A DNA stretch of 14,786 bases from Candidatus Heimdallarchaeota archaeon (GTDB taxonomy: Archaea > Asgardarchaeota > Heimdallarchaeia > Heimdallarchaeales > Heimdallarchaeaceae): contig DXJF01000129.1 in the NCBI GenBank assembly GCA_019057375.1, forward strand, positions 1 through 14,786, in the 5' to 3' direction. Shown here in pieces: positions 1 through 14,625 of this stretch. The translations under genes and the position numbers were made by a program. The notes beneath the pieces were generated by a model. That model saw nothing but the letters and a program-made list of their open reading frames with translations. It did no database searches and was not told where the DNA came from. Numbering within the stretch: position 1 is the first letter of the stretch; every line of letters begins with the position of its first letter.

Positions 1-1
1 C

Positions 2-946
2 TAATGTTGTTAATTGTGTTATTTTTCCTAGTATTTCTATTAATCCATGTTTCCCCATTAGTTGCAATATTTCTTCACTTACAGGTTCATTTATTTCTAT
101 TTTTGAAACTAATTCTGTTCTTATCTGGATTTTTTCCCTTACTATTTTGCTCATCTGTTCTACTTCTTCTGTTGAGTAATAGATTGGATCTAATGTTCCT
201 ATTTTTTTCTCTCTTTCTAGTTTCTCTACTTTTTCTTCTAGTTCATCTCTTTCTTTGTTTAGTATGTATACATATCTTATTACTTCATATACCATACCTA
301 TTACAAATCCCCCGAACATAGTATAAATTGTCCAGAATAACCTCCCTACTCCTGAACTCCAGATGACTAGTTTTATCTCTACCTCTTTTTCTTGTGTTGG
401 TGCATAATAAACAAAATAGTACATTCTCTTTTCTTCTAACCTAAACGTTTCATTAAATCCTCCCTGCGTTACTCTGAACTCTTGTACTTCATTTAATAAC
501 ACATATCCTGCATCTATCCAGTTTACGAATTCTTCATTTGTTGTATAGAAATAAACTATTGTTCCATCTTCAGATAGATCTACATCCATATCTATCCAGT
601 TATTTTCATACTTGTTTTCGTACCACCATACATAATATTGGTTCTGTTGTAAATTTATTGTTTCTTTGATTAGAGTATTTTTCCCATATGCTGCCACAAA
701 CATTAAAACAATTACACTAATCAGTATCACTCCAGAGATTTTTTCTCTATTCTTGTCAAGTTTTTTCAGTATTTTTCTTATTTTTTTGACTGTTCTTCTT
801 ATTCTTTCTTTCCATTTCTTTGGAATTTCAAACTCTACTATGAACCTCACCACAACTCCTTTTCCCCTCATTGTATTTCTACAATCTATTAAGAATAATA
901 ATCCCAAAATAGAAACTGAACTTTGTATTAGAATTTCTTTCCACAT
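2..946 (-). CDS. Hypothetical membrane protein, >315 aa, 3' end runs off the window (not in ORF track)
   Basis: Hand translation shows 315 codons without a stop, from ATG 946 (MWKEILIQSSVSILGLLFLID...) to the window edge. Strong SD GGAGGTGA at 951-958. Three hydrophobic segments, an aromatic-rich beta-type segment and an E/K coiled coil (LNKERDELEEKVEKLEREKK). Confidence 0.85.
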   Translation of the reverse strand, partial: MWKEILIQSSVSILGLLFLIDCRNTMRGKGVVVRFIVEFEIPKKWKERIRRTVKKIRKILKKLDKNREKISGVILISVIVLMFVAAYGKNTLIKETINLQQNQYYVWWYENKYENNWIDMDVDLSEDGTIVYFYTTNEEFVNWIDAGYVLLNEVQEFRVTQGGFNETFRLEEKRMYYFVYYAPTQEKEVEIKLVIWSSGVGRLFWTIYTMFGGFVIGMVYEVIRYVYILNKERDELEEKVEKLEREKKIGTLDPIYYSTEEVEQMSKIVREKIQIRTELVSKIEINEPVSEEILQLMGKHGLIEILGKITQLTTL

Positions 947-950
947 ATCC

Positions 951-1040
951 TCACCTCCCTATCCTTTTAATTCCATTGTGAAATATTAATTCTGAAATTC
1001 CATTGCAAGTTTTTTTCTCTCTGTTTTCTTTTTTATTCAT
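951..1040 (-). CDS. Possible 29-aa peptide (MNKKENREKKTCNGISELIFHNGIKRIGR)
   Basis: The ATG overlaps the end of the upstream 51-aa ORF, and its TGA lies in the SD of the next gene. It fills the operon gap exactly but is very short. Confidence 0.35.
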   Translation of the reverse strand: MNKKENREKKTCNGISELIFHNGIKRIGR

Positions 1041-1188
1041 TCCCTTCCCTCTTTTTCCATTTCAAACCCAAACCTATTTTTTCTCTTAATTTCCTCTCCA
1101 ATGAGCTTTCTTTGATTTGAATACCTTCTAACACAATTATACACCAAACCAACCCTAAGGTCAAAGCTACTCCTAATAGATCTATCAA
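1033..1188 (-). CDS. 51-aa single-pass membrane peptide (not in ORF track)
   Basis: TTG start preceded by GGAGGGG, with a TTGA overlap with the stop of 1185..1499. Translation: MIDLLGVALTLGLVWCIIVLEGIQIKESSLERKLREKIGLGLKWKKREGNE. Confidence 0.6.
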   Translation of the reverse strand: MIDLLGVALTLGLVWCIIVLEGIQIKESSLERKLREKIGLGLKWKKREGNE

Positions 1189-1499
1189 CTTATCCCCTCC
1201 GCTAACAAGTGTCCTATTGTCCTTTCTGTCATCTCGAACACTTTTATTATCTCTTCACTCTCATGGATCAGTTCATGTAGTTTCTTCAGTTTTATTTCCC
1301 TTCCCATTGTGTCCACGAATACTATCTCATAACTCCATGCTCTCTTCTCACTCTCTTCTATCATCCATCCCTTCTGTTCCTCGAAGAAGTTCTTCAAGAA
1401 GAATTGTAATCCGTCTACTGTTTTTATCTTCTGTCTTTTTAGTTCTATCCTTCCCTCTTTCCCTTCCACATAGATCACAAAGACCATTTTCCAGTTCAT
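1185..1499 (-). CDS. Hypothetical protein, 104 aa
   Basis: ORF track. Natural-looking composition; first gene of the coupled operon, downstream of a TATA-containing motif. Confidence 0.75.
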   Translation of the reverse strand: MNWKMVFVIYVEGKEGRIELKRQKIKTVDGLQFFLKNFFEEQKGWMIEESEKRAWSYEIVFVDTMGREIKLKKLHELIHESEEIIKVFEMTERTIGHLLAEGIS

Positions 1500-1530
1500 T
1501 TTGTCTCTATTTCATTTATTAGCACTTTTG

Positions 1531-1573
1531 TTTATAAATGTGGGAAAGTTTTTTTCTCGAGTTTATAAATCAA
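1531..1573. promoter_or_regulatory. Copy 1 of ~44-bp repeated promoter-like motif (two TTTATAAA boxes)
   Basis: TTTATAAATGTGGGAAAGTTTTTTTCTCGAGTTTATAAATCAA; similar to 3693-3736. Confidence 0.55.
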
Positions 1574-1583
1574 TTTACGAATT

Positions 1584-1672
1584 AGTGGTTGAAGCTGGCA
1601 AACCCTTAAAATTCATTCTCAATCATATAACTTATCATACTTCTTAGCTGGCTTCAACTCACTCTTTTTTCT
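1584..1672 (+). ncRNA. Stem-loop plus U-tract; candidate small RNA or terminator
   Basis: GTTGAAGCTGGC (1588-1599) pairs with GCTGGCTTCAAC (1647-1658): 12 bp with two G-U pairs on the plus strand, extended by AGTG/CACT and followed by CTTTTTTCTT. Confidence 0.35.
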
Positions 1673-2692
1673 TCATCTTATTCCTTGAAAAATCTGCTTA
1701 ATTTTCTCAAACTCAATATTTTTTCCATGTTTTTCGATTAGCTGTAATTTTGGTTTTTCATCTAGTTTTGAATGATCTATGAGTAACCCTACAAGTGTAT
1801 TAGATTTTTGAATAATGTAGGTGAATATCAACGAATTGGTCATATATTCTTTAATTTTGTCATCTGTAAGCTTGTTTCTTCTATAAAGGTCAACATTACC
1901 TCCAATTGACATCAGCACTTCATGATGCTTTTGTTCTTGAATTATTTTCTCTTGATTTATAAGATTATAAAATTGTTTTCTAGTTAAGTCTTCTAAATCC
2001 TTACTCGCTTTTTTGTAATTTTTCAGACTAACATCCCTTTCCAGTGATTTTAAAAGATAATCTACTGTATCCCACTTACTGCGATCAGAAGTGATCTCAT
2101 ATTGATATGGGTAGTTTATTATGTCATTAAAGTCAACTGAATCGAGACTAAAACCATTTTTAGGATACCAAAAATAAATTATGAAAGGCTTTTGTATTTC
2201 TTTACATGCTTTCCTTGCTAATGCTTTTCTTATGGTCCAATGAGCATAAGAAGAATTTACTATTCCTACAGCTTCATCTGCTTTTATTTTTGCTTCTTTT
2301 TCATTAAAAGAATCATCACTTCTTAGAGTAGTTTTTTCATCAAATTGTTTCATTGTTTTTCTTAAAGAATGTGTGCATTCAATTTCAAATTCCAAAATTG
2401 GATTCTTTATTTCTATATCTGTAGTTTCATCTGAGCTTGTTTGAACGAATTCTGGATTTAATGATATTAGATAATTGAATAATCTTATCTCTAACAATAT
2501 ACCTACTACATTTTCTATTTGATCGTTTAGAGTAATCCATGAAACTAATCTGTTATGAAATTCTGATTTTCTATCTTGACAACTAATTCCCTGACATTTG
2601 GATAAACATTCAGAGACAAACCCAATATTATTGTAGGCATATTTATTTTGAATTAAGTATTGTTCAAATCTTGTTAGAGAATGGTTATTCAT
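1673..2692 (-). CDS. Hypothetical protein, 339 aa; possible PD-(D/E)xK-fold nuclease-like
   Basis: ORF track. The motif LEIRLFNYL...TDIEIK...EIECT resembles the E...(P)D-x10-12-ExK/T spacing of restriction-endonuclease-like folds (inference). Confidence 0.8.
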   Translation of the reverse strand: MNNHSLTRFEQYLIQNKYAYNNIGFVSECLSKCQGISCQDRKSEFHNRLVSWITLNDQIENVVGILLEIRLFNYLISLNPEFVQTSSDETTDIEIKNPILEFEIECTHSLRKTMKQFDEKTTLRSDDSFNEKEAKIKADEAVGIVNSSYAHWTIRKALARKACKEIQKPFIIYFWYPKNGFSLDSVDFNDIINYPYQYEITSDRSKWDTVDYLLKSLERDVSLKNYKKASKDLEDLTRKQFYNLINQEKIIQEQKHHEVLMSIGGNVDLYRRNKLTDDKIKEYMTNSLIFTYIIQKSNTLVGLLIDHSKLDEKPKLQLIEKHGKNIEFEKIKQIFQGIR

Positions 2693-2713
2693 ATCCTATT
2701 ATTCTTTCTTTAA

Positions 2714-3181
2714 CTATTTAATTTGTCTGCTTTGTAACATCAATTTAATTCTTTTCCAAAAGGGAAGATATCTTTTGGTCAACTCAATATTTAGTGATAC
2801 ACTACTTTCTTCAAAAATAGGCTTATAACCACATAAAACAAATATATTATTAACTTGAGTTCCCCAATTGAGTAATACATTTCTCTTCTTTTCATCTTCT
2901 AGATTAGAATATGCTCTTGTTGAATATGAATAATTAATTTTATTTACCAAATCTGAATATATTGCCCTATGCATTTTTGTGGGTTTATATAAATGAGCAG
3001 TTAAGCTTAAAATTGTTACAACTAAATCCCGCATATAATCATAATCAAGTAAGTTTGGTTTTTCCAGTAAAGTTTTGTATTTATCTTTCAACTCTTCTGG
3101 GTAGTTCAAGCATTCTTTGACTAACTCTTTAAGGTATTCCGTTAGTTCTTCTTTACTCCCTTTCCATCCAAACCACTCCAC
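2714..3181 (-). CDS. Hypothetical protein, distal part of a longer frame (open without stop up to 3427)
   Basis: The track start is a GTG, but the frame continues 82 sense codons upstream (EIEEVKEFYKFYKSKKG...IGIGPF) to the single TGA at 3428-3430. Confidence 0.7.
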   Translation of the reverse strand: MEWFGWKGSKEELTEYLKELVKECLNYPEELKDKYKTLLEKPNLLDYDYMRDLVVTILSLTAHLYKPTKMHRAIYSDLVNKINYSYSTRAYSNLEDEKKRNVLLNWGTQVNNIFVLCGYKPIFEESSVSLNIELTKRYLPFWKRIKLMLQSRQIK

Positions 3182-3427
3182 GAATGGTCCTATTCCTATC
3201 TTTATCTCGTATCCTGATGAAGCCCAATAGACTATTTCTATTAAGTAACTCTTTATATTCCACTTCTTCCCATATTCGTTCAGTTCTCGCTCTATTTCTT
3301 TCCCTATCTCCCAAACTTTTTTTCTTGATGGTAAATTTAATGCTTTATACCTTTCTTTTATTTTCTTGCTCCTTATTCCTTTCTTTGATTTGTAGAACTT
3401 GTAAAACTCCTTTACTTCCTCTATCTC

Positions 3428-3673
3428 TCATTCTTCCTCTTTCATGCTTTCTAGAAATTCTATCGGTCTTTTCACCCATCCCCATTTACACTGGAATTTC
3501 TTGTCAAATCCTTTCTCTTCGCATCTGTTTATAACTTTTTTTAGAAACTCTTCTTTGTCTTCTATCACTTTTGGAAAGTTCAAACTTGTTTTATCCATTA
3601 TATGAGCTATGATCCTTTCATATGCTTGCTGTCTCTTTAATCCTTTTTTTGGTAAATGTAGTTCGCTCATCAT
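3428..3673 (-). CDS. Hypothetical protein, 81 aa; possibly N-terminal part of an interrupted 319-codon gene
   Basis: ORF track. Same frame as 2714..3181; the ATG lies ~21 nt from a TTTAAATA box (possible leaderless mRNA). Confidence 0.6.
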   Translation of the reverse strand: MMSELHLPKKGLKRQQAYERIIAHIMDKTSLNFPKVIEDKEEFLKKVINRCEEKGFDKKFQCKWGWVKRPIEFLESMKEEE

Positions 3674-3692
3674 CTAGTTATTTTTCATTTTC

Positions 3693-3736
3693 TATTTAAA
3701 GGTGGAAAGTTTGTTTTTCTCTAGTTTATATATCAA
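3693..3736. promoter_or_regulatory. Copy 2 of ~44-bp repeated promoter-like motif
   Basis: TATTTAAAGGTGGAAAGTTTGTTTTTCTCTAGTTTATATATCAA; its last 19 nt match copy 1 at 17/19. Confidence 0.55.
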
Positions 3737-3777
3737 ACTGCTTATTATCATTCGAGACCTAGCAAATGGTTTCAAAG

Positions 3778-3983
3778 CATATTGGATCAACCTTGCTAAG
3801 GTTGTTTACCCTTAAGCCAGTGACTTAACGGGTAGGAAGTACTGCTGAAAAAGACCCATAAGAAAACAAATCAAGCAACTAGGTAGTGGTTGCAGATTCT
3901 AGTATCTCTTTCGGTAAAATTTGTTTGACTTCTCACAAACGAAATAACCGATGGTTCCAATATGATGGGTCTAAGCAGCTTCC
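3778..3983 (+). ncRNA. Unidentified multibranched, pseudoknotted structured RNA candidate
   Basis: Helices read by eye: CAACCTT/AAGGTTG; TACCC-TTAAG/CTTAA-GGGTA; GGAAG/CTTCC; CTGCT/AGCAG; AGACCCAT/ATGGGTCT; GCAAC/GTTGC; AGAT/ATCT; TCGGT/ACCGA; GTTTG/CAAAC; pseudoknot CATATTGGA (3778-86)/TCCAATATG (3956-64). Strand inferred from the flanking TATA and U-rich tail. Confidence 0.6.
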
Positions 3984-4082
3984 ATTACTTCTTTTATGAC
4001 ACTAGTTTCCTTCTTGATGTGTTTTTATATTCTCTTTTGATTGAATCTATAAGTCGAATAAGAGTCAATCGAAAGTGATGAG

Positions 4083-6761
4083 ATGAAGGATTCCAAGAAT
4101 TTTAAAAAGAAGAAAAGTGGATTCTCTTCACTATCGTCTCATAAACCTCCTAATTATGCAAGAAGTTCTATCTTTCTCACCATATTACCATATTTTTTTG
4201 TTCTATCAGTGGGGGTGGCTACTTTTATCTTTCTTTTCCCAGAAGTTATATCAAGAGTATTTCCTTCTTTTTCATTTGATTTAGTTGCTTTTTTCACCAA
4301 TTTAGGACAAAAAATCAGTGATCCAATTCAAAGAATATTCTCAAAGGTAGGATTGACTATTATTGCAATCTCAGGAAGTTTCATTTTGGGCTGGTTCTTT
4401 TCTCCATATATAATGTCAAAAAGTAAGAACACTTTTTGTCAAAGAAAATTGTTTTTTCCTTTTTATTATAAAGTTACAAGTGTTCTATTTGTTTCTAATA
4501 CAGATACTGAAGTGTTAAGACAACCTCATCATTCTACTCTTTTTCATGCTGAATTCTTTCCATTTATTGCTGCGAGTAGCAAGACTATTCAGATGATAGT
4601 ACTGAAATATAAATCAACAGTAGGGATCTATTTCACTATTACAATGAAAGGTTTTTCCAGTAAGAAACTTACTAGTGCCATTCAACGTAAAATGCTGTAT
4701 ATAGCAAACTACCTAGACACCTATTATTCTAGAGCTAGTGAAATATTATCAGCTGAGCAAACAAAGATGCTTCTTGAGGTTTTCCATAAAATGAAATTCA
4801 AATCCTCTCTTGCTATACATCTTGAAGATATATCTCTAATGGATTTAATATACAGCACTCTCTCAAAAGAAGCTTTTACTGACAATTTTTACATATCACT
4901 TATTGCTAATAGAAAGATAAAAGGTTCAGATACTTTTCTTTTCCAGTTTGATTCCTTTTCTGATAATAAGAAAGCTTTAGAGTATTTCAGACATGCTACA
5001 GGTTTTTCTAAAAAATCCTCTTTAAGCAAAAAACAACTTGTAGAAACCGAGACAATGTCAAGGTATATTTTCATCCCTTTAAACTATCAAGGAACGTTTC
5101 CTCTTTATTCTAGTAAGATAACAACCTCTCAAGAGGATTCTCAATCCATTCTTTTAGGACATGAGAGTAGAAGTGGATTTACAGTAGATGAAATTTCAAT
5201 TGAAGCTTCCCAACTCCTATACAATACTGAAATTTATGGAATGATAGGTCAAGGAAAAACTAGATTAGTAACTAGTATTATTGACCAACTCTTGCAATAC
5301 AGTATCCCATGTTTGATATTTGATATCAAGGGAGAATATGCTGCAACTTTCGTTAATGAACCTGGTGTTGAGATCTTTACAATGGGGGAACCTCACCCTT
5401 TGTGCATCAACCTTTTTGATACTGCAAATGAAGATGATGTACGAAGCACTCTTCTCATCATTGAAGAGATGATGGCAACCTCAAATCAAGAATTCAGTCC
5501 ATCGATGAAGAATCTCTTTGAAACAGCTCTCTTCAAAACTCACCAAGACGAAGAGCGCTCCTTAGAAACTTTTGTTAACCACCTACTTACACTAGCTAAA
5601 CAAAACCGTCATATTTCCTCCATCCAGCACACTCTAGACGCAGTTCTTAACAGAATAAATTTTATCTTCAATCCAATCAATTTTGAGGTTTTAGGAGTAA
5701 ATGAAACCACCTTAGATTTTGATCTCTTAAATCAAGAAAAGAGTATCATTCTTGATCTAAGTCAATTTCAAAGAAGAGCAGCAAGACCCTCAGATATTTT
5801 TCTCATATGCAATTTGATTCTCAAGATGTTCTATCGTTTTGCTTCAGCTCAAGAGCTTACGAGTAAGTTACGTTATGTTGTCGTTTTAGAAGAAGCAATC
5901 AATATTATCCCTCATTTCTACAGAACTGAAAGTTCTGCTTCACTAATTACTGCTGAAAACAGTTTCTTACTTGGTAGATCTTTAGGTATAGGTCACGTGA
6001 CTATTTCTCAGATGTGGGACAGTGTTAGTCAAATTGTTCATGCTAATTCAGCAACAAAGATTGTTTTTCGTTCAGGAGGAAGGATTGATAAACTTACCTC
6101 AGCTTTGAATCTGCAAGAGAAAGATTTCAGTAGACTAAAGATTCTTCCAAAAAGACATTGTTTTGTAAGTGGTGATCATCAGACAATAGAAATAGTCACC
6201 TTAGACTTTTTGAAAGAACCATTGAATAGACAACAATACACTGTTTCTCTCAAGAAAAAGTATCACTATAGTAGCTATCCGTTGTTATACTCTAGTTTTA
6301 TAGCTATGAGAACATCTCTTTATGAAAAGATCTCAGAATCGAAAAAACAACCTAAGAATAAAAGTAAGCAAGAGAAATCAAAACCTACCAATGCGAATCT
6401 ACCAAATAGAAAGACTCTACAAAGTAAAAGAGATAACAAGATTGAAAATCAGGAAGCCATCATATCTTCAAGTATTCCTAAATCTGAGGAAGACAGTGTC
6501 TGTAATACTTTTTGTTCATTAAAATCACAAGAACAAACTTGTTTTGACACCAGATCCAGTGCACAAATTGTTTATTCTGTTGTATTGAAAGAATTTTCAA
6601 TGTTTGAAATTGAGCAAGCTATTCTTGGAACAACACATATTACAATAGAAGATTTGCTGAAAAAAGTTACTTTGGAGAAAAAACTGCCATATAACAGAAA
6701 TGTACTATTTTGTGCACAAAGAGAATTGATTAATTTTCTGATGGAAAAGGACTTGTCATAA
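4083..6761 (+). CDS. Membrane-anchored HerA/FtsK-superfamily (DUF87/VirB4/TrwB-like) P-loop ATPase, 892 aa
   Basis: Two N-terminal TM segments; Walker A GMIGQGKT (5238-5261); FDIKGEY; Walker B VVVLEEA; GRSLGIG..TISQ and NSATKIVFR motifs typical of HerA-family helicase-like ATPases. Confidence 0.85.
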   Translation: MKDSKNFKKKKSGFSSLSSHKPPNYARSSIFLTILPYFFVLSVGVATFIFLFPEVISRVFPSFSFDLVAFFTNLGQKISDPIQRIFSKVGLTIIAISGSFILGWFFSPYIMSKSKNTFCQRKLFFPFYYKVTSVLFVSNTDTEVLRQPHHSTLFHAEFFPFIAASSKTIQMIVLKYKSTVGIYFTITMKGFSSKKLTSAIQRKMLYIANYLDTYYSRASEILSAEQTKMLLEVFHKMKFKSSLAIHLEDISLMDLIYSTLSKEAFTDNFYISLIANRKIKGSDTFLFQFDSFSDNKKALEYFRHATGFSKKSSLSKKQLVETETMSRYIFIPLNYQGTFPLYSSKITTSQEDSQSILLGHESRSGFTVDEISIEASQLLYNTEIYGMIGQGKTRLVTSIIDQLLQYSIPCLIFDIKGEYAATFVNEPGVEIFTMGEPHPLCINLFDTANEDDVRSTLLIIEEMMATSNQEFSPSMKNLFETALFKTHQDEERSLETFVNHLLTLAKQNRHISSIQHTLDAVLNRINFIFNPINFEVLGVNETTLDFDLLNQEKSIILDLSQFQRRAARPSDIFLICNLILKMFYRFASAQELTSKLRYVVVLEEAINIIPHFYRTESSASLITAENSFLLGRSLGIGHVTISQMWDSVSQIVHANSATKIVFRSGGRIDKLTSALNLQEKDFSRLKILPKRHCFVSGDHQTIEIVTLDFLKEPLNRQQYTVSLKKKYHYSSYPLLYSSFIAMRTSLYEKISESKKQPKNKSKQEKSKPTNANLPNRKTLQSKRDNKIENQEAIISSSIPKSEEDSVCNTFCSLKSQEQTCFDTRSSAQIVYSVVLKEFSMFEIEQAILGTTHITIEDLLKKVTLEKKLPYNRNVLFCAQRELINFLMEKDLS

Positions 6762-6767
6762 AATTTC

Positions 6768-6862
6768 TTTGGGGTTTTTAAGGTGAAGTGCATTCTAGTA
6801 TGCAGATAGGCAAGAATTACACTCAAAACCCAAACCCGTAATTCTTCGCTTATCACCTAAAA
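6768..6862. other. Structured element upstream of tnpB (candidate left end or ncRNA)
   Basis: AGGTGA/TCACCT encloses TGCAT/ATGCA and AAGAATTAC/GTAATTCTT hairpins; the loop CCCAAA/AAAACCC can pair with upstream TTTGGGGTTTT. Confidence 0.4.
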
Positions 6863-6944
6863 GGAAAAGGAGATGAAAAAAGAGATTAGGTAGTTCTTCT
6901 GAAATCTTATTCGAATTCCTGGAGCAATTGTACACGTAGAAACT

Positions 6945-6997
6945 ATCGTTGGTTCCTCTACTAGTTTCGGATTGAGTCTAGAAGAGGAACCAATGAT
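6945..6997. repeat. Long inverted repeat/hairpin
   Basis: ATCGTTGGTTCCTCT-A-CTAG...CTAG-A-AGAGGAACCAATGAT, with a perfect 11-bp core. Confidence 0.7.
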
Positions 6998-7057
6998 TTT
7001 GATTTTTCGAAAGAGGTTCAGTGTTTATCAACACTTACAATTTTGGAGGTAAAAATC

Positions 7058-8617
7058 TTGAAAATTGAAGAAAGTAAACAAGAAGAACTACTATTTGAAG
7101 ACAAGAAACTTGGAGAAAATGGAAAAGTCAAAAGCACCTCTCAAGCACCATTAGTTACATTCTATGAGACTGTTTCTCTGAGAATCAAGACGGAACTGAT
7201 GTCTGTTAGAGAATGCGAAAGGTTGAAGAGAATAACCGCAAGAGATACAAGGATCATCAGAGACTACCTCAGAATCATCAATCACAACGAGGAAAAAATT
7301 CTGAAAAAAGACGGTAAAGTCAACATATCCCTTTTGGATAAACTGACTTTAACTACTTCAAAGAAAAATGAGAACGAGATAAGGTCATCTGTTCCTCATG
7401 ACTTGAAGAAGCGTTATCCCCGTTGTTCCCATGATGAATTCCAAGAATGCAGTAGTAAAGCCATCTCGACTTATGAAAGCTGGAAAGCAAAACAGGATGT
7501 TTCCAAAAAGGAACTGAGTAGACCAGAATTCAAGAAGAAAACTCCCCGACCCATGTTCAAAGGAACTGGAAGTAGAGGTACGATCAAGGTACATTCAGAA
7601 CCTGAAAATACCGAAGCTATACTTTGGCTGGATATAAGGGATTCGCTTGACACAAGAAGATCTGACGAACGAACTGATTCGAAAAAATCTGGTACAAAAA
7701 ACCATAACAGACTATGGTTACCTTTAGCTTTCTCCCCTTATCACGAGAAGAAGCTGAAACCAGAGAACATCAAAAAGGTGGAACTCATACATAAATCCAA
7801 AGAACAACAGTGGTGGGCACATTTCACCCTCATGTATTCTGTCCCCAGCTACCACTCTACTAACCCTCCCGCAGTGTTAGGAGTAGATCTAGGGATAAAG
7901 AAGACAGCTGTTGCAGTATTACTTACACCTACGGGGAAAGTAATAATGGATGAACTCCGCTTCATTGTCAATAAGGAGAGACAGTCTAAAATTTGGCAAC
8001 TAGAAAAACAGATCGGAGATACTCAGAGGAAGTTGAACAAAAGTCTCAACAATGGTCAGCACACTGAACAGCTTAACGCTACTCTCTTTCTTCTGCGTAA
8101 AAGACTTCGTTCTGTTACTGAACAAGAACTGGGGCATGCAGTTAATCAATTAGTTGATTTCATTCTCCAGCTGAAGAAGAGTTATAATCTGTTTGTAGCT
8201 GTTGGCTATCCTAAAAACATCCGAAAGAGTCAACCTCTGGGCAGTGGAAACAAATCCCACAGAAGACGTCTACATAAATGGTGTTATCGTCTCTTTACTA
8301 CTAAACTTAAGTACAAGCTTAAACACCATGGATTTGAATCCCATCGAGTAGTAGCTGTTAATGAAAGCTGGACTTCTCAGACCTGTTCCAGGTGCAATTC
8401 TACAAATACTACCCGTACAGGACAAGGACAATTCAATTGCCATGATTGCAACTACGAACTAGATGCAGATCTGAATGGAGCAAAGAATATAGGGAAGAGG
8501 TTAATCAAATATGCGTTGAAAACAACTTTCAATTTCATATTCGATACACTAACAGAAGAATGCCACACGCTACTACACTACAACTGTTTCGAGCCCTTAG
8601 GCCAATGGCTTGAGTGA
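7058..8617 (+). CDS. tnpB: RNA-guided endonuclease TnpB, large (519 aa), rearranged RuvC-II
   Basis: RuvC-I LGVDLGIK; RuvC-II position VAVGYP (G instead of E); downstream E in VNESWTSQTC; Zn finger CSRC..CHDC; RuvC-III DADLNGAKNI. Start moved from 7043 to the TTG at 7058 because GGAGGT lies at 7045-7050. Confidence 0.92.
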   Translation: MKIEESKQEELLFEDKKLGENGKVKSTSQAPLVTFYETVSLRIKTELMSVRECERLKRITARDTRIIRDYLRIINHNEEKILKKDGKVNISLLDKLTLTTSKKNENEIRSSVPHDLKKRYPRCSHDEFQECSSKAISTYESWKAKQDVSKKELSRPEFKKKTPRPMFKGTGSRGTIKVHSEPENTEAILWLDIRDSLDTRRSDERTDSKKSGTKNHNRLWLPLAFSPYHEKKLKPENIKKVELIHKSKEQQWWAHFTLMYSVPSYHSTNPPAVLGVDLGIKKTAVAVLLTPTGKVIMDELRFIVNKERQSKIWQLEKQIGDTQRKLNKSLNNGQHTEQLNATLFLLRKRLRSVTEQELGHAVNQLVDFILQLKKSYNLFVAVGYPKNIRKSQPLGSGNKSHRRRLHKWCYRLFTTKLKYKLKHHGFESHRVVAVNESWTSQTCSRCNSTNTTRTGQGQFNCHDCNYELDADLNGAKNIGKRLIKYALKTTFNFIFDTLTEECHTLLHYNCFEPLGQWLE

Positions 8618-8902
8618 TTCTGCAAGGAATGCATCATTTAGTAAAATTTGATGTGCGAGGTCAAGAGTCAGTTATCTCTTTAGTTTGACTGATTCGGTAA
8701 TGAGTGCCCTTAATCAGCGATATGAACCCTTTGGACTGCTTACAGCAATGTAACTATCCCAGAAGACTGGTACTGTAACTTTACAGTTATACACCCTTGC
8801 TTACCCTTAGCGACGCCAGTTTAGGGGGAGTCCTGAAAGGATCTTCTTTAAAATCTAATGGATTTTGGAAGAGAATAACTCATCCCCAGAATTTACTTAC
8901 AT
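8618..8902 (+). ncRNA. Putative TnpB omegaRNA (right-end RNA) with candidate guide ~8883-8902
   Basis: Position 3' of tnpB matches the established omegaRNA location. Serial hairpins (GTCA-AGAG/CTCT-TGAC, TGATT/AATCA, CCAG/CTGG, CTGTA/TACAG, TCTTCTTTAAAATC/GATTTTGGAAGAGA) are followed by a U-tract. The 5' end may overlap the CDS. Confidence 0.6.
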
Positions 8903-8949
8903 CTTCTTTCCTTTTTTTTTCTACTAAAATCCCCAGAATTTGCTTACAT
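8882..8949. repeat. Imperfect direct repeat of the infB 3' end (8882-8902 vs 8929-8949, 20/21)
   Basis: ATCCCCAGAATTTACTTACAT vs ATCCCCAGAATTTGCTTACAT. On the minus strand the copies read KRKEDVSKFWG* and KRKNVSKFWGF*. Confidence 0.9.
8903..8920 (+). terminator. Oligo-T tract, candidate archaeal terminator for the tnpB/omegaRNA transcript
   Basis: CTTCTTTCCTTTTTTTTT immediately after the candidate guide. Confidence 0.45.
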
Positions 8950-10732
8950 TTTTCCTCTTAATCTCTGCAAATTCCTCGAGCACTTTTATATCGTCTGGGG
9001 AAATCATTTCACTAAATTTTTTCATAAGCAAAACAGCATGTTTCTCAGGAACATCAACAAATAATGAATCTCCTTCTTTGATCTGTCTCCCCACAGTAGG
9101 ACCTCTGATAGAAATAGCAACTTGTTTTCCTTTAGTAGCTTCTCCGATTGTTTCCTGATTATCTTGTATTTGACGAATTCTTCCTACCCTCTGTCCATCA
9201 TCACGTATAAGCATTTGAGTAGTTTTAATACGACCGCCTACAACCTCTACACCAACAATAGCAGGTTTATTTGCTCGAAAAGTGTGGTTAGGTAAAATGG
9301 TTATTTTACCAGGCATTGTTAAATCTTTAAGAGATTCAGATTTAATAGCATCTTTTGTATCAATCATCCATCTTTCAAAATTATCAATAAGATTGTAAAT
9401 GACTCTTTCATTAAATACTTGGATACCATTCACTTCTACTTCTTCTTGTGCACCTGGAAGTACATCTACATTAAAACAGAGAATTGCTGCAAATTCAGGT
9501 GTTTTGTTTGCAACTATTGCTGCATCAATTACGTCAATCTTTGTGACATCACCGATATCAGCTTTCTGAATAGGAATATTTTTCTCTTTTATCATATCTA
9601 CTAATGCTTCTAAACTCCCCAAAGTGTCTACTTTTAGAATAACACCATTGGTTTTTGTTTCAATTCTAAAGCTTTCTAATTCTGCTTCAACTTCTTTGAA
9701 TACTTCATCTTCTTTGCCTACAGGTGCCACTCGTAATGGGGCTCCTGCTAAAGCATCCTCAAGACCATGTGCTGCAATCTTAACACCAGCTGAGGCATAA
9801 ATTTTGTCTACTCCTTTGAATTTATCCTTTGGATCTCTCATTTCATCCAGTTCTTTGGGTTCAAGAAGAGCACGAATCTTTAACAAGGCTGGTTTTTCTC
9901 TTCCACCAACAACGATTTTATCCGTCTTCTTTATCACACCATCATAAAGAATGACATCAATTGTTGTTCCTAATCCTTCTTCATCTTTCACTTCTAGAAC
10001 TGTACCTATTCCAGGTCCTTCACTATATTCTAGTTTTCGCATCATAAATTGCTGTGTTAATCCAGCTAACACTAAGAACAAATCTGGTATTCCTTCACCA
10101 GTTTTAGCACTAGTTGGAACAATAGCAATAGCTTTTTTGAAGTCCTTGACCTGATCATATCTGAAACCTTCCATCCTCAATGCAGATAATTCACCCATGA
10201 TATCATAGATTCTATTATCCATGTCCTCTTTTGCTTTTGGAATTTGCTTGGAATAAGTTTCAGCAAAAGTAGCTCCAGGAATAGATTTCCAAGAAGAAAT
10301 TCTATCAATTTTGTTTGCAGCAATAATGAAAGGTGTTTTACGAGCACGTAAAATATCGAGAGATTCATAAGTTTGAGCTTGAAATCCTCTTGTAACATCG
10401 ACAACAAGGATTGCTATATCCGCAACAGAAGCACCTCTTTTTCTAAGATTCATAAATGCTGCGTGACCGGGAGTATCAACAATCAATAAACCAGGAATGT
10501 CAAGTTTAATTTTTGAAGCCTTCATCAAAGGACCACAAACATCAATTATTGTTTGAGATGGAAAGAAAGATGCCCCAACGTGTTGGGTTATTCCTGCAGC
10601 TTCTCTAGCTTGAACAGCAGTCCCCCTGACTATATCTAATAAACTTGTTTTACCTGAATCTACATGTCCTAGAATAACACCAATAGGACTTCTCAATCTT
10701 TTACCACTATCTGCATCTATTACTTTTGACAT
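8924..10732 (-). CDS. infB: Translation initiation factor aIF5B (IF-2)
   Basis: LRSPIGVILGHVDSGKT, GITQHVGA, DTPGH, NKID and C-terminal FWG are diagnostic. ATG 10732 is preferred over GTG 10744 because GGGAGA lies just upstream of it. Confidence 0.98.
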   Translation of the reverse strand: MSKVIDADSGKRLRSPIGVILGHVDSGKTSLLDIVRGTAVQAREAAGITQHVGASFFPSQTIIDVCGPLMKASKIKLDIPGLLIVDTPGHAAFMNLRKRGASVADIAILVVDVTRGFQAQTYESLDILRARKTPFIIAANKIDRISSWKSIPGATFAETYSKQIPKAKEDMDNRIYDIMGELSALRMEGFRYDQVKDFKKAIAIVPTSAKTGEGIPDLFLVLAGLTQQFMMRKLEYSEGPGIGTVLEVKDEEGLGTTIDVILYDGVIKKTDKIVVGGREKPALLKIRALLEPKELDEMRDPKDKFKGVDKIYASAGVKIAAHGLEDALAGAPLRVAPVGKEDEVFKEVEAELESFRIETKTNGVILKVDTLGSLEALVDMIKEKNIPIQKADIGDVTKIDVIDAAIVANKTPEFAAILCFNVDVLPGAQEEVEVNGIQVFNERVIYNLIDNFERWMIDTKDAIKSESLKDLTMPGKITILPNHTFRANKPAIVGVEVVGGRIKTTQMLIRDDGQRVGRIRQIQDNQETIGEATKGKQVAISIRGPTVGRQIKEGDSLFVDVPEKHAVLLMKKFSEMISPDDIKVLEEFAEIKRKNVSKFWGF

Positions 10733-10910
10733 TTTATCTCCCACAGAAGTTTATCTGATGATATGCTCTATTCTCAAAGAATTCTTGATTATTTTAAATA
10801 AAAAGAAATTGGTTGAACATAGTTTTTTAACTAAGAATCATCTAGCACCAGAAAATTGGAGAAACATGCTTTAATATATTGGAAGGTTAGATTATCGGGA
10901 AGGGTTCTTT

Positions 10911-13127
10911 ATGAAAATAAAAAAGAGAAAATTAAGTTTAATCGTGTGCACTCTTCTTGTAGTTCAATTCATGATTGTAATAGAAAATAGTGAAATCAAA
11001 GCTGCAAGAGAGGAAGGCAACTATGATCCAGTTCTTAGTTCACTAAAACCAATAGATAATATTACGATAAATTCAGATAGCGACTTCATAACATATGGTT
11101 TCCCTGGATACGGAAATGAAAGTCACCCATATTTAATTGATGAATACAACGTCACTTCAAGTGATCAAAGAGGGATATATGTTAGACAAACTACGGCATA
11201 TTTCATCATACAGAATTGCTACGTTAATGCTGATAATGATGGGATATCATTTTCCTATGTTGAAGCAAATACTGCTACGATCAGAAACAATACTATAGTT
11301 CATAATAGTAATCGAGCGATACAATTGATGTGGACAGAAGGGTGTCTTATTGAAGAAAATACCTTCTTTGATAATAGTCAAGCGTTATATACAAGGGAAG
11401 CACATAATACAATTTTTAGGGATAATATTATATCAGAATGTACTTCAGAAAGACCAGTTTTCATATTCAATTCCCAGTACTGTGTAATTGATAACAATGA
11501 AATCAATGGGAACGAATATGATGATTGTATTGGGTTAAGATTAGCTTTTAATACAAACATAACAAACAATAGAGTCTATAATGGTGGGATGTATATTGAA
11601 GAATATGATTCTGAAAGTTTTCTTCTATACTCCTTTGAAAACAACTATGTTAATGATAAACCACTGGGTTTCTTTAGAAATTTACAATCACTTACACTAA
11701 ATCAAGATTATTATGGACAGATACTCATTTTCAATTGTACAAATGTTGAAATTTCCTATCAAGATATTGGAAACACCAATTACGCAGTCAAGATAGCTGG
11801 TTCTAATTATGTGGAAGTACATGACTGTTCTTTCACAGAAAATGAAGAGGGTATGGACATTCAGACATCAAATTACACACATATATACAACAATCTTTTC
11901 AGTGATAACAAGATAGGATTGGATTTAGAAGATACTTGGTTTATCGATATAGAGAACAATGATTTTATTAATACTGAAAATACATGTGTGGGAATCTCAC
12001 CAAGCGAAAGCGATTACATGGAATATTCAATAGTGAGGGGAAACAATTTCTTACACTGCAAAACAGGAGTAAATCTTTATACACAGCACTATGCAAAGGT
12101 AATAGATAACTTGTTTTTGAACAATAGTATCAAAGGAATTTATATCACAGAGAGTGAAAATGCAACAATTGAAGGGAACGATTTCTATGATAATGCTATT
12201 GCAATAGATGCTCAGGACGATATAAATTGTACAGTTATCAGTAATAATTTCTATGAGAATTATGAAACAGGCGTCTATTTCCAGAATGTCTACAATAGCA
12301 CCATTAAGTATAATATCTTTGTAAGTAATTCAGAAATTGTTGATGACCAAAATTATGCAGTTTTTCTAGATTTCAACGCAGAAGGTAATAGTGTACATCA
12401 CAACATATTCTATAACAATAGTATAAGTCATTCCTCACAAGCAAGAAATGAAGGGGCAAACAACACATGGTACGATATGGCAACTCTTGAAGGGAATTAC
12501 TGGTACGATTGGACAGGAATAGGAAGTTATTATATCTATAGCGAAGGAGCCCCTGTTTTTGATTATTACCCACTCAATGATACTGATAACGATAGAATTG
12601 ATGATATAGAAGAGATATTTGACTACTATACAGACCCATTTGATGAAGACAGCGATGATGATCTTTTAACAGATGGGGCAGAAATTATCGATTACGAAAC
12701 TGATCCAACAAGTGAAGATAGCGACGGAGATGGGTTAACTGATGGCGAGGAGGTTATAAATCACAATACAGACCCACTTTCTAGAGATACAGATGGTGAT
12801 TCATTAGATGATTACTGGGAAGTTACTTATGGAACAGACCCATTCTCTAACGATACTGCAGAAGATCCAGATAAGGATAAACTTACCAATTTACAGGAAT
12901 TTTTCTATGGAACTGACCCCTTTAACGAAGACAGCGACAGCGATGGTCATTCTGATGGTAAAGAAGTGAAGAAAGGTACTGATCCACTTAATGCAAGCGA
13001 TTATCCTGCTTTTCCAGTCGGAGCTCTTGTTGGTGGTTTGGTTGGTTCAACTGTAGTTTTGGGTGGAGTTACCTTTGCTGTATTTTATATGCGTAAAGAA
13101 GAGATACTCTTCTTCAAGAAGAGCTAA
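10911..13127 (+). CDS. Secreted, C-terminally anchored right-handed beta-helix (NosD/pectin-lyase-like) protein with Ca-binding DxDxDG repeats
   Basis: Signal peptide MKIKKRKLSLIVCTLLVV; many I.NN.F..N repeats; GNYWYDW motif; six D[TSP]DxDxxx[DN]xxE repeats; TM GALVGGLVGSTVVLGGVTFAVFYM plus a charged, Lys-rich tail. Confidence 0.9.
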   Translation: MKIKKRKLSLIVCTLLVVQFMIVIENSEIKAAREEGNYDPVLSSLKPIDNITINSDSDFITYGFPGYGNESHPYLIDEYNVTSSDQRGIYVRQTTAYFIIQNCYVNADNDGISFSYVEANTATIRNNTIVHNSNRAIQLMWTEGCLIEENTFFDNSQALYTREAHNTIFRDNIISECTSERPVFIFNSQYCVIDNNEINGNEYDDCIGLRLAFNTNITNNRVYNGGMYIEEYDSESFLLYSFENNYVNDKPLGFFRNLQSLTLNQDYYGQILIFNCTNVEISYQDIGNTNYAVKIAGSNYVEVHDCSFTENEEGMDIQTSNYTHIYNNLFSDNKIGLDLEDTWFIDIENNDFINTENTCVGISPSESDYMEYSIVRGNNFLHCKTGVNLYTQHYAKVIDNLFLNNSIKGIYITESENATIEGNDFYDNAIAIDAQDDINCTVISNNFYENYETGVYFQNVYNSTIKYNIFVSNSEIVDDQNYAVFLDFNAEGNSVHHNIFYNNSISHSSQARNEGANNTWYDMATLEGNYWYDWTGIGSYYIYSEGAPVFDYYPLNDTDNDRIDDIEEIFDYYTDPFDEDSDDDLLTDGAEIIDYETDPTSEDSDGDGLTDGEEVINHNTDPLSRDTDGDSLDDYWEVTYGTDPFSNDTAEDPDKDKLTNLQEFFYGTDPFNEDSDSDGHSDGKEVKKGTDPLNASDYPAFPVGALVGGLVGSTVVLGGVTFAVFYMRKEEILFFKKS
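12579..12996 (+). repeat. Six tandem thrombospondin-type-3-like DxDxDG / TDP repeats (protein level)
   Basis: DTDNDRIDDIEE, DSDDDLLTDGAE, DSDGDGLTDGEE, DTDGDSLDDYWE, DPDKDKLTNLQE and DSDSDGHSDGKE, each followed by xxTDP. Confidence 0.85.
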
Positions 13128-14563: not shown

Positions 14564-14609
14564 TTTCACCTCGGGCACACAGACAATTGTGCCTTCATTA
14601 GGTATGAAA
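14564..14609 (-). promoter_or_regulatory. Kink-turn in rpl7ae 5' UTR overlapping the Shine-Dalgarno (autoregulatory element)
   Basis: Minus strand: TTTC-AT-ACC-TAAT-GA-A-GGCAC-loop-GTGCC-C-GA-GGT-GAAA, i.e. tandem sheared G.A pairs, a bulge and C/NC stems. SD GAGGTGA (14566-14572) lies inside it. Confidence 0.75.
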
Positions 14610-14625
14610 ACAAAGTTTGGATTTA

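Follow-up and report, generated by a model that had tools for sequence, protein, structure and literature searches.

Why should a copy of the last codons of an essential translation gene stand exactly where an RNA-guided nuclease would carry its guide? The question is raised by the window analysed here, a 14,786-nt stretch of DNA from Candidatus Heimdallarchaeota archaeon that forms contig C80 of a metagenome-assembled genome (3.47 Mb in 159 contigs, 89% complete). In the window, an intact tnpB gene (7043–8617, plus strand; 524 aa, RIIr type, PF07282) is followed on the same strand by a predicted omegaRNA scaffold (8618–8883, delimited by the alignment and fold of 13 copies), by a guide segment (8884–8904) that copies the 3′ end of infB, and by a polypyrimidine tract (8902–8922). 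The convergent infB gene itself, encoding aIF5B (8924–10744, minus strand; 606 aa), follows directly. Our favoured reading, to which we assign a probability of about 0.5, is that the guide is addressed to the vacant infB end and works in the homing or retention of a genomic island, the resident infB being spared.

The two copies of the infB end form a direct repeat (8882–8905 and 8929–8952), identical at 22 of 24 positions, with a spacing of 47 nt. Guide positions 1–22 (8884–8905) equal the resident target-like site, the final infB codons at 8931–8952, apart from mismatches at positions 12 and 20. At position 12 the guide has A and infB has G, a synonymous difference in a Ser codon (AGT/AGC); the other difference is non-synonymous. 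When the guide 20-mer was compared with the whole 3.47-Mb genome, allowing up to three mismatches, the one other match was an unrelated three-mismatch site on another contig. The local alignment of guide and infB scored z = 9.6 against shuffled guides. Given this uniqueness and this score, the match is not due to chance. The homologous stretch is nevertheless only ∼21–24 nt long, with a longest shared exact word of 13 nt. Homology collapses past approximately position 8905, with 2 mismatches in the first 24 nt versus 11 in the next 23 (Fisher P = 0.003). Between the guide copy and infB, third-codon positions are identical in six of seven cases, and the neighbouring sequence is unrelated.

An earlier inspection of the window, referred to here as the sequence-only reading, had reported the match of the guide-position sequence to the infB 3′ end, which is borne out by the 22/24 repeat and its uniqueness in the genome. 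The reading frames were also correctly described: infB ends ...KRKNVSKFWGF-stop, and the minus-strand pseudo-frame, whose ...DVSKFWG lies in the guide segment, ends ...KRKEDVSKFWG-stop, with its TGA inside the element end. The guide had been placed one nucleotide too early, at 8883, with a single mismatch at position 13; the conservation boundary described below moves the start to 8884 and gives mismatches at positions 12 and 20. Two further claims were not supported. The supposed codon-conserving extension with a 3-nt indel, which mismatches infB at 11 of 23 positions (P = 0.003), is a polypyrimidine tract of the TnpB subfamily. Nor do the differences prove that another infB allele was the source, since merely ∼21–24 nt are homologous and only two positions differ.

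The boundary between scaffold and guide was located by comparing copies of the element. The same genome holds six full-length tnpB paralogues, a tnpB fragment on contig C44 and a right-end remnant on C153. The right end, ...AATAACTCAT, is common to all eight genome copies and to ∼20 copies in congeners and other Heimdall metagenome-assembled genomes. These copies end at ...AACTCAT (8883 in the window), and divergence starts directly after. A shared fold of 62 pairs emerges from the 13-copy alignment, and 21 of these pairs show compensatory changes; within the fold, the terminal ACTCAT (8878–8883) pairs with an invariant ATGAGT ∼235 nt upstream as part of the covarying structure. The shared conservation boundary and the covarying terminal pairing thus set the scaffold end at 8883 and the guide start at 8884. 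As had been read from the sequence, the infB copy adjoins a structured omegaRNA and is followed by a U-tract. The ACTCAT/ATGAGT pairing resembles the pseudoknot that closes just before the guide in the ISDra2 omegaRNA (PMC10097598). No Rfam family was matched in the window at gathering thresholds.

The polypyrimidine tract, with a T9 run at 8912–8920, is shared by other copies of the element. A tract of this kind lies 14–127 nt past the scaffold, after a variable segment, in 7/7 genome copies and in most copies from relatives. The genome contains 27 TnpB-like (PF07282) loci belonging to several families; the tract was missing after 18 of the 20 other loci, and the remaining two had short, weak T-rich runs. 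Such tracts are rare, with 89 counted genome-wide. Judged by this distribution, the tract is a feature of the TnpB subfamily and not a decayed piece of infB, and the codon-conserving argument is therefore unsupported. The T9 tract probably terminates the omegaRNA, as an archaeal oligo-T terminator would. The guides of the paralogues are unrelated to one another. In C44, C79 and L053, the 'tails' past the tract resemble left-boundary context and end AAAA(C/T); the tail in the window ends likewise. A separate observation concerns C72:10077–9890 (minus strand), where a second, truncated right end, consisting of the last ∼45 nt of the scaffold and its own flank, lies 182 nt after the first. It sits behind a polypyrimidine tract and forms a miniature tandem unit.

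Comparison with relatives placed the TnpB unit at one margin of a strain-specific island. Similarity to five close relatives (G013, G009, G011, G006 and G018; 83–97% DNA identity) stops exactly at 8929–8931. It spans infB (Pfam GTP_EFTU, IF-2 and EFTU_D4; 91–98% identity to the closest relatives) and the genes to its right, ndk and rpl7ae, with none to the left of 8929–8931. In the close relatives, infB is followed by a spacer of ∼115 nt and then by convergent tiaS. Here, tiaS is found on contig C88 (C88:7531–8886), behind 7.5 kb of unrelated genes, namely an ABC ATPase gene and two open reading frames (ORFs) of ∼900 aa without a Pfam family. The synteny indicates that an island of at least 16 kb (C80:1–8928 plus C88:1–7536) replaces the infB–tiaS spacer, with the TnpB unit as its infB-side edge. 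The infB-proximal part (1–8928) is delimited by the synteny break and the continuation on C88; the island spans the contig break, and part of it is unseen. The island ORFs that were scanned yielded no integrase or recombinase domain. At the tiaS-side junction on C88, neither a further repeat of the infB end nor sequence resembling an element end was detected. The search gave just a 10-nt word, AACTCATCCC, in opposite orientation; there was no further similarity around it, and it was treated as chance. In the closest relative (G018:C70, L048; 97% identical), the contig ends 90 nt before the infB stop, and the assembly contains no match to the junction region. This contig end may reflect strain heterogeneity at the infB site.

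The end of infB has been occupied in other species as well. Uninserted infB alleles of the genus end ...WGW-stop in 14/14 cases, and on the plus strand TTACCA(T/A/G) stands directly before the target. The resident infB ends ...SKFWGF-stop, and in place of CCA(N) a TAAAAT hexamer stands immediately before the target (8925–8930, plus strand; on the minus strand, the infB Phe codon and part of the TAG stop). In G017 and G005, a remnant of a same-family element is fused at the identical infB nucleotide; infB there ends ...WG-stop, and the element supplies the TGA. A pattern search of 31 genomes of the family found an infB–element junction in three only, namely the window genome, G017 and G005. The G017 and G005 remnants belong to another lineage, with 77% identity to L099/L101 versus 69% to the window copy. 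Since remnants of a different lineage are fused at the same nucleotide in two species, the final infB codons have served this TnpB family as a landing site on more than one occasion. Small pieces are common to the islands at infB of the three species, and the islands may be related. Orthologous empty sites were also sought for the C65 and C44 copies in the five close relatives; none was found, and the flanks were not conserved together. Two individual similarities were recorded among the islands: positions 1373–1499 of the window are 73% identical over 130 nt to L043:2325–2454 of G005, beside the infB element remnant of that genome, and the ABC ATPase of G017 is 46% identical to that on C88.

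The arrangement is not confined to infB. The first 24 nt past the scaffold of ∼30 units were compared with their own 4-kb downstream flanks, and significant same-strand matches were obtained for three: the window unit (+47), C44 (+458) and L097 (+275), with z scores of 6–7.7 for the latter two. In C44, where tnpB is truncated, C44:14138–14162 and 14596–14620 (L007:2194–2218 and 2652–2676) are identical at 21 of 25 positions. The target lies inside a convergent carbamoyltransferase-like (OTC-like) gene, and the first mismatch falls at guide position 12. In L097 (G004:C27), from another species, 5870–5915 is a ∼45-nt copy of the 3′ region of a convergent gene at ∼6145–6190, drawn from 14 codons before the stop of that gene (IFEEYGITRVDRSY versus FFEENGIARVDRSY); five of the seven differences are at third codon positions. 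In all three units the copy begins at the scaffold end, a polypyrimidine tract follows and the real gene is intact, and the length of the copy varies (21, ∼35 and ∼45 nt). When the differences in the guide copies of the three units are pooled, third codon positions account for 8 of 13 (P = 0.035). As a sign of origin from other alleles, this excess was rejected as too weak, and constraint on the real genes alone predicts it too.

The protein itself shows conserved catalytic features. TnpB matches chains of solved TnpB/Cas12f structures and contains the C-terminal TNB/zinc-ribbon domain (PF07282, E = 2.3e-17, residues 415–483). In an alignment of 17 relatives, the RuvC-I motif GVDLG, the RuvC-III motif NADLN and a CxxC...CxxC zinc finger are conserved. 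The RuvC-II Glu slot holds Gly (VGYP), and an alternative conserved Glu occurs in NESWTS, ∼53 residues later; this RIIr arrangement is considered active (Altae-Tran et al. 2023, PMC10691335). In Asgard TnpB loci described in the same study, a hypervariable segment is flanked by a conserved T upstream and by a conserved motif downstream, which sets a precedent for a spacer-like guide with two fixed boundaries. The six full-length genome paralogues and the full-length relatives are intact across the aligned length. Conservation of this kind suggests that TnpB may be active as a nuclease. The paralogues have diverged to 60–79% amino-acid and 66–81% DNA identity, and no near-identical copies at unrelated sites, as recent transposition would leave, were found among the genome copies. 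Four serine recombinase genes (PF00239) are present in the genome, none beside a tnpB of the window's family, and the only Cas1 gene of the genome lies elsewhere, away from the TnpB unit. A metagenome scan for close TnpB relatives returned distant or fragmentary loci only.

By analogy with characterised elements, we infer a function in homing. According to PMC10690162 and PMC10055086, cleavage of vacant sites by TnpB drives homing. The TnpB–omegaRNA complex would recognise a 'vacant' infB end, that is, one free of the island and with a target-adjacent motif (TAM) in front, as canonical OMEGA elements do. Cutting of this site would be followed by homologous repair from the island-bearing copy of the chromosome, by which the island would be restored or spread. 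The resident infB would be a poor target. Its final Trp codon, whose complement CCA would form part of a probable CCAT-type TAM, has been replaced, turning WGW-stop into WGF-stop. The mismatch at position 12 would in turn lie at the edge of the ∼12-bp TAM-proximal pairing that ISDra2 TnpB needs for cleavage (PMC10097598). Because both the TAM position and position 12 differ, the host infB would be spared and conspecific vacant alleles would be cut. The T9 tract directly after the guide would end the omegaRNA. Of the origins and functions proposed by the sequence-only reading, homing into vacant infB-adjacent sites is the best supported, by the synteny break at 8929–8931 and by the same-nucleotide fusions in G017 and G005.

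The reading depends on the identity of the TAM. TAAAA had been put forward for this role, and the hexamer TAAAAT does occur at both 6759–6764, near the left end of the unit, and 8925–8930. The left copy, however, lies within a conserved block, which makes the proposal weaker than a CCAT-type motif. A sister TnpB family (L103–L112, Heimdallarchaeum; 35–40% protein identity) is present in many recent, near-identical copies in two closed Heimdallarchaeum genomes and has no polypyrimidine tract. Its left junction is an invariant CCATG, and its right end, TCATG, is homologous to the right end of the window's family. The sister CCATG agrees with the CCA(N) found in front of the vacant infB target, and also with the CCAA that precedes the homologous site in the C44 case. 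In view of the conserved block around the left TAAAAT, the sister junction and the CCA(N) of the genus, we lean towards a CCAT-like TAM that the resident infB has lost; TAAAAT would be a tentative second candidate. The sequence before the resident target (TTTTTCTACTAAAAT) was also assessed as a repeated element end, with no enrichment over control.

Several observations weigh against homing. No empty-site allele of the window species was found among the sequences compared, and among known alleles none matches the guide better than the resident infB. A search for a TnpA/Y1 transposase (PF01797) gave no match in the 89%-complete assembly; with no TnpA and with paralogues as old as 60–79% identity implies, current mobility is doubtful. 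Of the ∼30 units searched, only three have such a guide copy close by. If the TAM were TAAAAT, the vacant sites of relatives would go uncut and the resident site would be the one to bear a TAM. Homing also leaves unaccounted for the tandem of a guide copy and a complete infB end 47 nt further on. Three origins for the tandem were examined by hand and rejected: a 47-nt tandem duplication that decayed uniformly, Campbell-type integration through the target, and tandem duplication with precise excision. Each of them conflicts with one or more of the junctions seen.

In a different account, the 21 nt are an inert scar left from an earlier element–infB junction, with no present target or function, and TnpB is a slowly decaying passenger. 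The scar could stem from flank carried along in a local hop, from gap repair, with one element copy as template for another, that overran into the flank of the template, or from a tandem duplication followed by excision. Old paralogues and the missing TnpA agree with this account, and in G017 and G005 the element at infB has decayed to a remnant. The copy begins right at the element end; its length is guide-like but variable (21, ∼35 and ∼45 nt). The truncated second right end of C72, 182 nt after the first, implies that local rearrangements of such ends occur. A decaying passenger is, however, hard to reconcile with a tnpB that is intact in six genome paralogues despite 20–40% divergence, which points to purifying selection. 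Identity at six of seven third-codon positions, next to unrelated sequence, argues for a recent or maintained copy, and it is precisely at the TAM position and the seed edge that the resident site diverges. We regard the scar as the main rival of homing, if a rather unlikely one. Scar formation or 3′ transduction, which the sequence-only reading had listed, is a live rival as to how the copy arose.

The remaining explanations appear weaker still. TnpB–omegaRNA might bind the resident infB end, cut it inefficiently and function on this essential gene as a roadblock or a sensor. TAAAAT stands before the resident site and at the left boundary of the element, and the first 11 guide positions are perfectly matched here and in C44, the first mismatch being at position 12 in both. 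Shortened pairing turns ISDge10 TnpB from cutting to repression, according to PMC13507860. The 11-nt perfect seed favours self-targeting, an option also raised earlier, and the mismatch at position 12 counts against it. Such regulation seems improbable: the catalytic residues are conserved, unlike those of TldR-type repressors, the site lies at the infB 3′ end and not at a promoter, and the guides of the paralogues are mutually unrelated. Moreover, the resident site of L097 is mismatched at guide position 2, and the sister family favours a CCAT-type TAM, which is missing at the resident site. Duplication of a target gene's 3′ end is common among integrative elements, and an attachment-site (att)-type duplication could have been produced by a site-specific recombinase integrating the island into the infB 3′ end. 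The island is strain-specific, and the four serine recombinase genes lie elsewhere in the genome. The copies, however, do not flank the island: both stand on one side of it, with a spacing of 47 nt. The genome has no third copy, the island ORFs scanned gave no integrase domain, and one copy begins exactly at the scaffold end. The att-like remnant suggested by the sequence-only reading is accordingly disfavoured, and we regard it as very improbable. Slighter again is the chance that the assembly wrongly fused two strains at the repeat into a chimera. The genome is metagenome-assembled in 159 contigs, and a contig end interrupts infB of the closest relative 90 nt before its stop; but the longest shared exact word, 13 nt, is too short for a mis-join at usual k-mer sizes, and the layout recurs on C44 and in L097, which comes from an independent assembly.

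At the other end of the unit, comparison of copies defined a left-end region (6747–7042, plus strand), similarity to other copies starting at 6747; it includes a 20-nt inverted repeat (6945–6997). A conserved left block, CAYAAAAT, precedes TTCYKTGG in all copies, and conservation reaches further left, into the 3′ end of a HerA-like gene or what remains of one. Candidate left cleavage sites are 6759/6760 or 6764/6765. The HerA/DUF87-type ATPase gene of the window (4083–6761, plus strand; 892 aa; Pfam PF01935 and PF10412) has its TAA stop (6759–6761) in this block. A gene of this kind, or just its last 39–120 codons, lies directly upstream of tnpB in most units, with paralogues or 3′ fragments in C72, C65, C81, C63, L096 and L098–L102. 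The window HerA-like protein is 90% identical to that of L101 and the two TnpBs are 62% identical; the HerA-like gene and tnpB appear to recombine independently. What is conserved left of 6759 may be the context of the target, formed by the 3′ ends of HerA-like genes. Two short stretches, 3767–3794 (28 nt, 100%) and 3881–3917 (37 nt, 95%), match the interior of the C81 unit and fall in structured, non-coding DNA that precedes the HerA-like gene. Beyond infB, a gene for a NosD/beta-helix/TSP3 protein (738 aa, 10911–13127) is missing between infB and ndk in G013, G011 and G006, and appears to be another insertion specific to the strain.

If the guide is active, the locus would present a natural case in which an RNA-guided nuclease targets the end of an essential gene of translation and the host copy is resistant. 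Multi-gene islands could then hold a chromosomal site without an integrase. A guide bounded by scaffold and terminator would also bear on how fixed, spacer-like guides arose from flank-derived ones, a step towards CRISPR arrays. If the copy is a scar only, the last infB codons are still documented as a repeat insertion site for a TnpB family, and infB tolerates loss or replacement of its final Trp. A more general proposal, which we regard as speculative and rather unlikely, is that TnpB-tipped islands of Heimdall archaea settle at the ends of essential or conserved genes. The homing guide would be an internal, terminator-bounded cassette and the neighbouring gene would be rebuilt in uncuttable form, giving a drive that cuts the vacant allele and keeps the resistant copy, without transposase or integrase.

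The locus shares its basic plan with IS200/IS605 OMEGA elements such as ISDra2 (PMC10055086, PMC10690162 and PMC10097598), whose guide comes from the DNA immediately past the right end. In both, tnpB is followed by a structured omegaRNA with distant terminal pairing, and the guide begins where conservation between copies stops and equals insertion-site sequence. In contrast to these elements, the window unit has no TnpA and no recent copies, and it edges a multi-gene island. A terminator-like tract separates its guide copy from the gene end, in tandem with a complete target, and the resident target is without the probable TAM. The RIIr TnpB clades and Asgard loci of PMC10691335 likewise have Gly in the RuvC-II Glu slot, an alternative Glu and an NADXN RuvC-III motif. 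The Asgard loci also share a spacer-like variable segment after the scaffold, with a conserved T upstream and a conserved motif downstream. The downstream motif differs, being a polypyrimidine/T-run here and not GTTCACTCA, and no Asgard Cas1 gene lies near the window unit. TldR repressors (PMC10705468) are also TnpB relatives with guides matching a host gene; here, unlike in TldR, the catalytic residues are kept, the match is to a gene 3′ end and not a promoter, and the guides of paralogues differ.

Islands that integrate at gene 3′ ends through att sites are similar in that a strain-specific island lies beside a conserved gene end, with a short direct repeat and a functional gene. Here, unlike in such islands, the repeats lie on one side only, the ORFs scanned gave no integrase and one repeat is the guide of an RNA-guided nuclease. 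In synthetic home-and-rescue or cleave-and-rescue drives, a guide is directed against the wild-type end of an essential gene, and the chromosome with the element keeps an uncut version. The window resembles these drives in that its guide matches the end of an essential gene and the element-bearing chromosome keeps a differing version; if the guide is active, the locus would follow home-and-rescue logic. It differs in being a natural arrangement in which cutting is predicted only and the resistant version may be a survivor of selection. Set against all of these systems, TnpB, the omegaRNA, a flank-type guide and homing are of known kinds. What is new is the tandem of a guide copy and a complete host target, the family-specific terminator-like tract between them, the position at the edge of a multi-gene island and the essential protein-coding neighbour.

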